Origin: Candidatus Bathyarchaeota archaeon
Lineage (GTDB): Archaea; Thermoproteota; Bathyarchaeia; Bathyarchaeales; Bathycorpusculaceae
Assembly (NCBI GenBank): GCA_963715865.1
Contig: OY970280.1
Span: forward strand, 576,001-640,000
Length of the DNA stretch: 64,000 nt
Reading direction: 5' to 3'
Every line of letters begins with the position of its first letter. Within the stretch, counting starts at the first letter, position 1. Of the stretch, positions 12,032 to 36,907 are shown in pieces. The translations under genes were made by a program, and so were the position numbers. The notes beneath the pieces are model-generated. The model saw only the letters and a program-made list of their open reading frames with translations, did no database searches and was not told the origin of the DNA.

Positions 12032-13111
12032 CTACAGTGTAACAGCCGGCATCACAGGAATGGGGAACAGTCCGAGTATGCGAAAGTTCTTCACGAATCC
12101 CGTATATCCCGCGTCTGAATTAAGCACATACAACGAGATAACATCGTTCATATTGACTGCAACTTGTTGGCTGTATTCGTAATACGTTGTTGTGCTCATC
12201 CCACAATCAGATCCTACTGCTACTCCGTTTTGGTATAATTTACCGGATACCCAATGACCAGAAGTTCCAGCCTTCTCTGAAAAGTTAATCCTAATCGTAC
12301 CCTTGAAGTATCCAACATTAAACTCTTTGACCTTATGGTAAGTCTGCCCATCAGGACCATTTATCTCAGCATCGTTTGACAGCAAAATGTTTGTTACAGA
12401 ATCAGCGTAAGGCCCACCAACAGCAGCGTACAAAACTGGTAACAGCGCTGGCAATATAGCCGGAATATTCGTGTCCAATTGTGTAGCGATGTCTGCTGGA
12501 ATAAGGTCAGTTTTAGTCTTAACCGCAGCTACGTTTCCGCCAGTTTCCAACGCGACAGAAGCACCGATCAAATCAGTCTTGGCTTTAATCGCTGGAACAT
12601 TGGTGTCAAGTTGAGTAGCTGTATCTGCAGGAAGAAGATCAGTTTTCGCTTTGATTGCTGCTACGTTGCCTCCTGTCTCGAGAGCAATACTTGCGCCGAT
12701 AAGGTCGGTCTTGGCTTTGATAGCTGGAACATTGGTGTCTAACTGTGTACTTGTATCTGCTGGTAATAGGTCGGTTTTAGCCTTGATGGCTGCAACGTTA
12801 CCCCCTGATTCAAGAGCAACCGACGCGCCTATCAGGTCTGTTTTAGCCTTGACCGCAGCTACGTTTCCGCCGCTTTCCTTAGCAACAGTAGAATCTTTAG
12901 CTACCGTAGAATCCTTGGCAACGGTCGAATCTTTGGCTAAAACTGTAGAACCTTCAATTTGACTTAAAGTTGCTCCTACGCACGTCGCACCGCCGCCTCC
13001 ACCGCCTGCAGCAACCGCGACGTTAAGGTTCCCGTTAGCATCCGTGCTTAGCTGCTTTATTGATCCATCAGGATTAATTACTTCAATTTTAGCAACTACT
13101 TCTTGACTCAT
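12032..13111 (-). CDS. Fibre-like virion protein with tandem repeats and a C-terminal beta-sandwich-like head
   Basis: AKDSTV repeats, six 22-aa KAKTDL repeats, C-terminal globular domain; GAGGTGA SD. Confidence 0.7.
   Translation of the reverse strand: MSQEVVAKIEVINPDGSIKQLSTDANGNLNVAVAAGGGGGGATCVGATLSQIEGSTVLAKDSTVAKDSTVAKDSTVAKESGGNVAAVKAKTDLIGASVALESGGNVAAIKAKTDLLPADTSTQLDTNVPAIKAKTDLIGASIALETGGNVAAIKAKTDLLPADTATQLDTNVPAIKAKTDLIGASVALETGGNVAAVKTKTDLIPADIATQLDTNIPAILPALLPVLYAAVGGPYADSVTNILLSNDAEINGPDGQTYHKVKEFNVGYFKGTIRINFSEKAGTSGHWVSGKLYQNGVAVGSDCGMSTTTYYEYSQQVAVNMNDVISLYVLNSDAGYTGFVKNFRILGLFPIPVMPAVTL
12470..12950 (-). repeat. Coding tandem repeats: six alternating 66-nt units plus three to four 18-nt units (boundaries approximate)
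   Basis: KAKTDL recurs every 22 aa, alternating with IGASVALE(S/T)GGNVA and LPADT(S/A)TQLDTNVP; wobble positions have diverged. Confidence 0.85.
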
Positions 13112-14104: not shown

Positions 14105-15093
14105 TTAGCTTGTTAGACAGTTCGTAATTTTGGCTATGCATTCACCGTTCGTGATTACCGGCGCGTATCTTGTCGTTAAAATTGGCTTAACAAGTTCTTT
14201 GCTCTTGAGCAATTCAACATCAGTGGTCAATGGGCGTTTTAATTCTCTGGTGCTATTGAGGAACAAGCCTGTTCCTTATGGCTACCATCTAAGAAAAATC
14301 CAAGCGGCGCTTGCACTTAATCATAAAAGGCTGCTATGGTTGCCTTCTGATTAATATATGCCGCGCTTAGGTTTTTGCCCGTACTGATGCAATACACTGT
14401 ACCCGCAGGCACAACGTTGCTCCAGCAAAGTTCCCATTCGCCAAGCATCTGCATTGGTTTCTGGGTAATTGGGCTGATAACGTCGTGGTATAAGCTGTAG
14501 TTCGGCAAGTTTTTGATGTCTCGTTTTTGCACTGGATTGCAAAGTATCGTATCCATCAGGAAGTCAGCTTTATTGATTAATGCTTCTGCATTATTGAAAT
14601 CTTCCATACCAGGCGTGCCTGCCTTCGTGAATTCAGTGCCTGTGACAGTGATAGTTTTGCCTGTGCAAGCGTTACTGTTTGCTCCTGGGCATGCCAGATC
14701 AATGACGCCTGAGCAATCTAATTCGATTTGGAAGGCCAACCGCCTCGCAAGTCTTTTGAGTTGCTGGTTAATCACTGGTAGGTCAACGTCTTCAACGACT
14801 TCCTTGGGGATTTCAACGGATTCGCCGCGTTTATACGGGCTTATGGTAACGTAAGACATCGGTGTATAGTCAACTGGAACTGCAGTGCCAGGCGCGATTT
14901 CGCTAATTCCCGTGCTTCTTACACCTGCTTCTTTAACGTAAGTTTTTGTCCTTCCAGATTTTAAGACGTCGTCAGTGAACAGCCGCTTCGTTATCAAGTT
15001 TGGCATAGTCAACTCAAGAATTACCTGATGCAATTCGGGGTACTGAATGGCTGCTGAATCAACAAATGCTAAAGCATCTTCATTAAAACTCAT
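14105..15093 (-). CDS. Major capsid protein (HK97 fold), 298 aa, spliced: join(15093..14356, 14310..14289, 14241..14105)
   Basis: Exons 738+22+137 = 897 nt. Spliced C-terminus ...STGKNLSAAY/APLGFFLV/KRPLTTDVELLKSKELVKPILTTRYAPVITNGECIAKITNCLTS*. The unspliced ORF stops at 258 aa inside intron 1. Confidence 0.92.
14242..14288 (-). other. BHB intron 2 in the MCP gene (47 nt, frame-shifting)
   Basis: Central helix UCUU/GAGA, bulges AG^A and AU^U, intron stem UGGU/ACCA with apical AGGAACA/UGUUCCU hairpin, outer helix UUUU/AAAA. Confidence 0.9.
14311..14355 (-). other. BHB intron 1 in the MCP gene (45 nt, contains an in-frame TAA)
   Basis: Central helix GCAU/GUGC, bulges AU^A and AA^G, intron stem UUAAUCA/UGAUUAA, 9-bp exon-exon helix with one bulged C. 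Confidence 0.92.
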
Positions 15094-36799: not shown

Positions 36800-36907
36800 T
36801 GGCGGGCGGGGAGGGATTTGAACCCTCGACCCCCAACTTAGGAGGCTGGTGCTCTATCCGTACTGAGCATCGAGAAAGAGTCATGAGTTGGCCCTCTTTA
36901 CTCGCCC
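36800..36907 (-). tRNA. tRNA-Arg(CCT) with a 30-nt intron at non-canonical position 9/10 (36869-36898)
   Basis: Spliced cloverleaf: D-stem GCTC/GAGC, anticodon loop CTCCTAA, T-arm GAGGG-TTCAAAT-CCCTC, discriminator G, encoded CCA; acceptor stem has an A6:C67 mismatch. Confidence 0.9.

Follow-up and report, generated by a model that had tools for sequence, protein, structure and literature searches.

The major capsid gene of a provirus in the genome of a Candidatus Bathyarchaeota archaeon raises the question of how a complete capsid protein may be produced from a reading frame that stops well before the end of the homologous proteins. The gene lies on the minus strand of the 64,000-nucleotide stretch of DNA analysed here (the window), which extends from position 576001 to 640000 of a genome assembled as a single contig of 2.35 Mb, and its unspliced ORF, 15093..14317, encodes 258 aa only. 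In a preliminary description of the window, the early stop was attributed to two inserts regarded as introns of the archaeal bulge-helix-bulge (BHB) type, and the capsid was claimed to need the splicing machinery of the host.

The gene is the HK97-fold major capsid gene of a head-tailed virus, as established by the Pfam, PHROG and fold matches and by synteny. Thus, the ORF is matched by Pfam Phage_capsid_4 (PF25209) with E 4.9e-5 and 24.2 bits, a score under the 27-bit cut-off, and the homologues of the window protein are also assigned to PF25209 in the precomputed annotations, with the PHROG major head protein being assigned to 10 of 11 capsid family members. The best Foldseek matches of the capsid model were the HK97 capsids and encapsulins, the model being weak (pLDDT 53) and therefore used for the fold class only. 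Upstream of the capsid gene are found the terminase, the portal, a 359-aa protein (the homologue of a 368-aa gene of the related locus L001) and a 149-aa protein, and downstream an MG2-domain protein and the tail-tube protein, in a module that is syntenic with those of intact relatives, including L001. The host genes, such as those of a DinB-like polymerase, a proteasome subunit and FttA, begin near 23.9 kb of the window, and the virus module is, therefore, an integrated provirus. At 12032-13111 of the minus strand, the provirus encodes a probable fibre or decoration protein of 359 aa, in which tandem repeats (...GGNVAA-I/V-KAKTDL...), each about 30 residues long, come after a Gly-rich stretch; it has strongly diverged from its 231-aa counterpart in L001.

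When the three exons (738 + 22 + 137 nt; Table 1) were joined by script, a frame of 897 nt and 298 aa was obtained, reading ...NLSAAYAPLGFFLVKRPLTTDV...ITNCLTS and then the stop codon, from which the junction peptide NLSAAYAPLGFFLVK is predicted. The same script gave 738+45+22+47+137 nt for the whole gene, in agreement with the preliminary extension of the frame from 258 to 298 aa by two cuts, and confirmed that both inserts have to be removed: with insert 1 alone taken out, the frame hits a TAA across the intron 2/exon 3 border, and with insert 2 alone taken out, a TAA inside intron 1, these being the two stop codons located beforehand. The intronless MCP of L001 aligns by tblastn from residue 1 at window position 15093. 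At a dS of 1.26 between it and the spliced window gene, the dN/dS amounts to 0.033 over the full gene, with exons 2+3 alone giving 0.041.

Table 1. Coordinates of the capsid gene parts (introns and BHB motifs as predicted), of other window and host genome features, and of the insert sites found across the related capsid genes
Feature	Position	Strand	Description	Basis or loci
MCP exon 1	14356..15093	-	738 nt, codons 1-246	ORF list; tblastn; Pfam
Intron 1	14311..14355	-	45 nt, phase 0 between codons 246 and 247, in-frame TAA	gap in relatives; MFE fold
MCP exon 2	14289..14310	-	22 nt, APLGFFL and first base of Val254	protein and DNA collinearity with homologues
Intron 2	14242..14288	-	47 nt, phase 1 in codon 254	gap in relatives; strict BHB by scanner
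MCP exon 3	14105..14241	-	137 nt including stop codon	collinear with C-terminus of 298-aa homologues
BHB motif 1	14300..14370	-	outer helix 14370-14362/14309-14300, central 14361-14358/14316-14313, bulges 14357-14355 and 14312-14310	
BHB motif 2	14237..14298	-	outer helix 14298-14295/14240-14237, central 14294-14291/14247-14244, bulges 14290-14288 and 14243-14241, inner 14287-14284/14251-14248	
Portal	18075-17317 and 17248-16757	-	two frames; frameshifted versus relatives	tblastn and DNA alignment to L001
Large terminase	19624-18292	-	fragments; frameshifted versus relatives	tblastn and DNA alignment to L001
EndA paralogue	L006:1459-2013	-	genome 742.9 kb	
EndA paralogue	L007:1234-1785	+	genome 1187.2 kb	
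Insert site	codon 28		phase 2	L028 (57 nt), L032 (30), L063/L069/L072 (31)
Insert site	codons 71/72		phase 0	L150 (28 nt)
Insert site	codon 107		phase 1	L153 (22 nt)
Insert site	codon 202		phase 2	L153 (29 nt)
Insert site 1	codons 246/247		phase 0	window only (45 nt)
Insert site 2	codon 253/254		phase 1	window (47 nt), L008, L009, L119, L128-L130, 12 metagenome loci (26-68 nt)

The borders of the inserts are given by the homologues independently of any RNA structure. Among 5.8 billion proteins, 35 relatives of the capsid protein were found, and most of the full-length ones comprise 296-300 aa. The best relative, P0001, is 96% identical over exon 1 and reads ...NLSAAYAPLGFFLVKRPLTTDVELLKSKELVKPILTTRYAPVITNGECIA..., the same as the spliced window product across both junctions, while the 298-aa homologues are likewise continuous at both of them, ...AAY/APLGFFLV/KRP... 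(the slashes marking the junctions), as had been anticipated for AY/AP and FLV/KR. The DNA alignments agree with those of the proteins: the intronless L001, L002 and L005 leave clean gaps of exactly the 45 and 47 nt listed as introns in Table 1, the DNA of the P0001-type intronless relative having been taken from five independent assemblies, and the borders are unambiguous in the window because the bases flanking each of them differ. No copies of the window introns were found in the rest of the same genome, nor were the exact alleles detected in IMG/VR or in 60 related genomes, and the pattern of exon 2 plus both intron ends had no match in the metagenome contigs.

The complete BHB folds proposed earlier for both inserts were recovered, that of intron 1 as the MFE structure and that of intron 2 slightly above it. 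The MFE fold of intron 1 is the canonical BHB (hBHBh'), with the central helix GCAU/GUGC, the bulges AUA and AAG, an inner stem of 7+6 bp and an exon-exon helix of 9 bp with one bulged C, its energy being -24.6 kcal/mol (z = -3.3). The MFE structure of intron 2 contains the 5' bulge only, at an energy like that of shuffled sequence (z = -0.76), and the full BHB, composed of the outer helix UUUU/AAAA (four A-U pairs), the central UCUU/GAGA, the bulges AGA and AUU, and the inner UGGU/ACCA with a further stem, lies 0.3 kcal/mol above it (-16.3 vs -16.6). In both introns, the cut between the second and third bulge nucleotide, the rule established for cbf5 (PMC2738675), falls on the borders defined by homology. 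At this register the two window inserts score 11-12 of 12 in BHB pairing, which is equalled by none of the 288 neighbouring registers. Each of the 13 capsid-gene inserts tabulated has the 4/4-bp central helix and two 3-nt bulges at the register that restores the frame, and this register is the unique best of 289 in 11 of them, the BHB register having been chosen where a border was ambiguous by one repeated base. The background of a strict BHB at one given register is about 7e-6 in the genome (3421 hits in about 5e8 position-length pairs). The loose motif scan returned about 280 hits per strand in the 64 kb, and the genome-wide scan for BHB motifs joining ORFs gave 128 candidates vs 105-140 with decoy bulge sizes, i.e., no enrichment. 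Since the motif alone is common under loose rules and shows no excess over the decoys, the case rests on the coincidence of the independently determined borders with the motif. It was also observed that the first intron base (the third nucleotide of the 5' bulge) is A in every tabulated capsid-gene intron (window; L008-L178), and that the first nucleotide of the 3' bulge is A in 13 of the 13 inserts of the register table.

The pairing scheme is further reflected in the variation between the sequences. RNAalifold applied to the 13 distinct site-2 sequences yielded essentially the BHB, with the outer helix slipped by one register in the U/A run. On the canonical structure, 96.6% of the site-2 cells are paired vs 46-63% with the partners slid, and the central and inner helices are paired completely (100%, 13 sequences). 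Double changes were counted in five pairs. One of these belongs to the central helix and joins exon to intron, being U-A in the window and G-C in most of the sequences. The covariation score was reached by 0 of 500 shuffles, a count which is not to be read as a probability because the site-2 sequences are related, and the slide control is the fairer one. As site 1 is represented by a single sequence, only the adaptation of the exon flanks could be assessed there: the window forms 9 of 9 exon-exon pairs by means of synonymous codons vs 3-7 in 68 distinct intronless alleles. Intronless genes with 98-99% protein identity to the intron-bearing ones differ from them at the helix-building synonymous positions, with ATC vs ATA beside site 2 and AGAA vs CGAG at codon 28.

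The inserts are not restricted to the window. From IMG/VR, the GTDB genomes and the JGI metagenomes, about 140 complete capsid genes were collected by capsid-family and site-2 pattern scans, and BHB inserts were found at six capsid-gene sites in related Bathyarchaeia viruses, up to three per gene (Table 1), their removal restoring proteins of 295-303 aa that are collinear with the homologues. Thus, L153:2033-3009 (+) contains three predicted introns (22, 29 and 35 nt) and encodes 297 aa after their removal, and L150:8248-9181 (-) contains two (28 and 27 nt), with 295 aa after removal; these two were the most interrupted archaeal protein-coding genes encountered in the analysis. In the unbiased samples, at least one intron was present in 5 of 80 viral and 4 of 43 genomic capsid loci. 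The terminase and portal are uninterrupted in the L069 record (31.8 kb, CheckV 93%), the L063 record and the L150 contig. The predicted introns are thus a family trait of the Bathyarchaeia viruses related to the window provirus. Several of the 27-nt introns, which keep the frame, carry an in-frame TAA in the loop (e.g., L158), and the unspliced RNA would, therefore, still terminate. The "introns" recorded by the automatic census in L010 (P0020), L106, L131 and L133 were discarded as spurious, the contigs being frameshifted, and the in-frame length differences of 12-18 nt at codons ~136-206 were taken as ordinary protein indels.

The intact terminase and portal by which a functional (inducible) provirus may be recognized were not found in the window provirus. 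In comparison with L001, its terminase has at least five frameshifts and is read in three alternating frames with internal stops, and its portal is split into ORFs of 267 and 208 aa by two +1 insertions 43 nt apart, vs single ORFs of 452 (terminase) and 486 aa (portal) in the relatives. These indels are not within long homopolymers, and the other structural genes have no frameshifting indels against L001 except one compensating 1-nt pair; real decay is a more likely cause of the frameshifts than assembly error. The provirus is, therefore, probably unable to package DNA and make virions, and for the same reason the selection for splicing may have ceased in the window copy. Thus, of the proposal that the capsid needs the splicing by the host, the division of the gene by BHB introns is supported, and the dependence on the host holds better for the intron-bearing relatives with uninterrupted terminase and portal.

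The enzymes required for such processing are predicted in the host genome. Two EndA paralogues of 184 and 183 aa, both with the N- and C-terminal domains, were identified, one closest to the catalytic alpha subunits of Crenarchaeota and the other to the M. jannaschii enzyme, a homotetramer, with no obvious short beta-type structural subunit being seen, and RtcB is represented by an uninterrupted match in a 494-aa open frame. The cbf5 gene of the host (genome ~549,360, 26.6 kb before the window) is interrupted at the catalytic Asp codon by an insert of 24 nt, reading GGTLEA*ATSQRNPKVTG, and this classic archaeal mRNA BHB intron, adduced in the preliminary description, is present in the very same host. 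With the intron option of ARAGORN, introns were predicted in 12 of the 44 tRNA genes found, several of them implausibly long. At 36811-36868 of the minus strand of the window, Rfam finds positions 10-63 of a tRNA only, and ARAGORN reports no tRNA in the whole window, a result that fits a non-canonical intron near position 9/10.

Four other explanations of the inserts have to be weighed against the evidence above. The frameshifts of the terminase and portal and the uniqueness of both intron alleles to this genome would fit inactivating debris in a decaying provirus, similar to a BHB and never removed, the capsid gene then being a pseudogene. However, random insertions would not twice provide a 4-bp helix with two 3-nt bulges at the precise register by which the frame is restored, nor would they bring along the synonymous exon changes that complete the helices; the exons are without other lesion at a dS of 1.26 and a dN/dS of 0.03-0.04, and like inserts with compensatory changes occur in virus contigs whose matches to terminase and portal are continuous, all of which renders debris improbable. 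Another explanation would be small palindromic, MITE-like DNA elements at preferred capsid sites, whose likeness to the BHB would be a by-product and which, if removed at all, would be removed otherwise than by EndA. A hairpin is indeed found in each insert, several inserts share common sites, and the presence or absence varies among near-identical genes, but a palindrome accounts for the inner stem only, whereas the central helix is formed between exon and intron, with one such pair covarying from G-C to U-A, and the outer one between exon 1 and exon 2. Moreover, the inserts constitute no sequence family, the window introns being single-copy in the genome and those of one site varying in length (26-68 nt) and sequence, and this origin is considered very improbable.

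Programmed translational bypass, by which the ribosome would hop over the inserts, is known from gene 60 of phage T4, where a gap of 50 nt is passed over. The gap sizes of 22-68 nt, the hairpins and the stops soon after the 5' border of the capsid inserts resemble such bypass elements, but hopping needs matching take-off and landing codons, and no match exists for the TAT before intron 1, the end of which reads ...GCAA, while the site-2 introns are of phase 1, i.e., inside a codon. In addition, hopping in L009 would yield a protein one residue short of every homologue, while the FVIKRP of the homologues is obtained exactly by the BHB cut, and the covariation fits the BHB, so that there is hardly any probability left for a bypass. 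The chance that the inserts are assembly artefacts of the single-contig genome is practically negligible, as long-read errors are mostly single-base indels rather than BHB-folding inserts of 45 and 47 nt, and equivalent inserts are present in independent JGI, ENA, Logan and GenBank assemblies.

Since the homology, the geometry, the covariation, the adaptation of the exon flanks and the enzyme set of the host agree, the two inserts are very probably archaeal BHB introns in the pre-mRNA of the HK97-fold provirus major capsid gene, and from these sequence data we infer the cleavage and ligation of that pre-mRNA in the cell. Each insert would fold together with its exon flanks into a helix, a 3-nt bulge, a 4-bp helix, a 3-nt bulge and a helix, the host EndA would cut each bulge after its second nucleotide, and RtcB would ligate the exons of 738+22+137 nt into a message for the 298-aa capsid protein; unspliced or half-spliced RNA would be translated into a C-terminally truncated product. 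It was also proposed in the preliminary description that splicing could gate late expression or restrict the host range. It is a rather doubtful extension of this scheme that, in the capsid genes of Bathyarchaeia viruses, the BHB introns are not mere passengers but dynamic and under selection, that they come and go between nearly identical viruses, possibly by recombination in which the adapted exon flanks are carried along, and that they may be kept to tie capsid production to the tRNA-splicing enzymes of the host or to break up the most conserved capsid DNA as a target of sequence-directed host defence. A crude repeat scan found no CRISPR array in the host genome, and in 300 family genomes the 111-nt intronless segment spanning both sites matched capsid genes only, apart from hits that were weak and short.

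If spliced, the capsid genes would be the first case shown of viral protein-coding genes that depend on the tRNA-splicing pathway of archaea, and they would also be the first among archaeal protein-coding genes to contain several BHB introns. The alleles with and without introns would offer a natural series on the entry, adaptation and loss of protein-spliced introns in coding sequence, and the competition of splicing with coupled translation could be tested in a cell with no nucleus. For annotation, it is of importance that gene callers truncate or mis-extend such capsid genes, P0033 being too short and P0034 reading through a 30-nt intron, and a BHB intron in a virus contig may serve as a possible marker of an archaeal host. 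The literature search found no publication on BHB introns in viral protein-coding genes and no report of mRNA introns in Bathyarchaeia; the papers on Bathyarchaeia viruses and proviruses PMC10541130 and PMC11705971 do not mention introns, and two archaeal mRNAs processed at BHB motifs, cbf5 and HVO_1309, are listed in the reviews up to 2023 (PMC7714728, PMC10485636).

The dependence of virus genes on RNA splicing is familiar from the group I introns of phage genes, such as td and nrdB of T4, which are large self-splicing ribozymes. In the splicing of XBP1/HAC1 mRNA, a protein endonuclease, IRE1, cuts at paired stem-loops and RtcB seals XBP1, in a eukaryotic, IRE1-based system that acts as a stress switch. 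The BHB intron of the crenarchaeal cbf5 pre-mRNA, reportedly a finding of Watanabe in 2002, is among the closest known likenesses. It is short, located within the coding sequence and cut by EndA, with the exons ligated afterwards (Yokobori 2009, PMC2738675), and the capsid introns resemble it in their length, in their location in the coding sequence, in the BHB cut between the second and third bulge nucleotide (here predicted) and in the highly conserved place in the protein. In contrast, the cbf5 intron is a single one, confined to one site of a single cellular gene and often with a relaxed BHB, whereas the capsid introns belong to a viral structural gene, with mostly strict motifs, up to three introns per gene and six sites across the family. 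The HVO_1309 mRNA of Haloferax volcanii, with a BHB intron in its 5' UTR (PMC7714728; PMC10485636), is likewise a case in which the splicing endonuclease acts on an mRNA rather than on tRNA or rRNA, as is predicted for the capsid genes, but its intron is situated in the untranslated leader of a cellular mRNA and leaves the reading frame uninterrupted.

The archaeal tRNA genes of Thermoproteales and Asgard contain multiple and non-canonical BHB introns (PMC4090602, PMC11291895) and resemble the capsid genes in the motif, in the range of intron sizes, in having more than one intron per gene and in the rapid gain and loss. However, the fold of the mature tRNA helps to present the motif there, while in the capsid genes it has to be built from codons constrained by the protein, at the synonymous positions. 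Short inserts in protein-coding genes of an archaeal virus are also the subject of Peng et al., who, as cited in PMC2738675, described putative 12-bp introns whose splicing was not demonstrated. Those inserts keep the frame and may simply be translated, and no claim of BHB geometry was found for them in the cited account, whereas the capsid inserts mostly break the frame or carry stops, and display both the BHB geometry and the covariation. Thus, a known splicing signal is met in a new setting, that of viral structural genes, with several introns per gene and at many sites.
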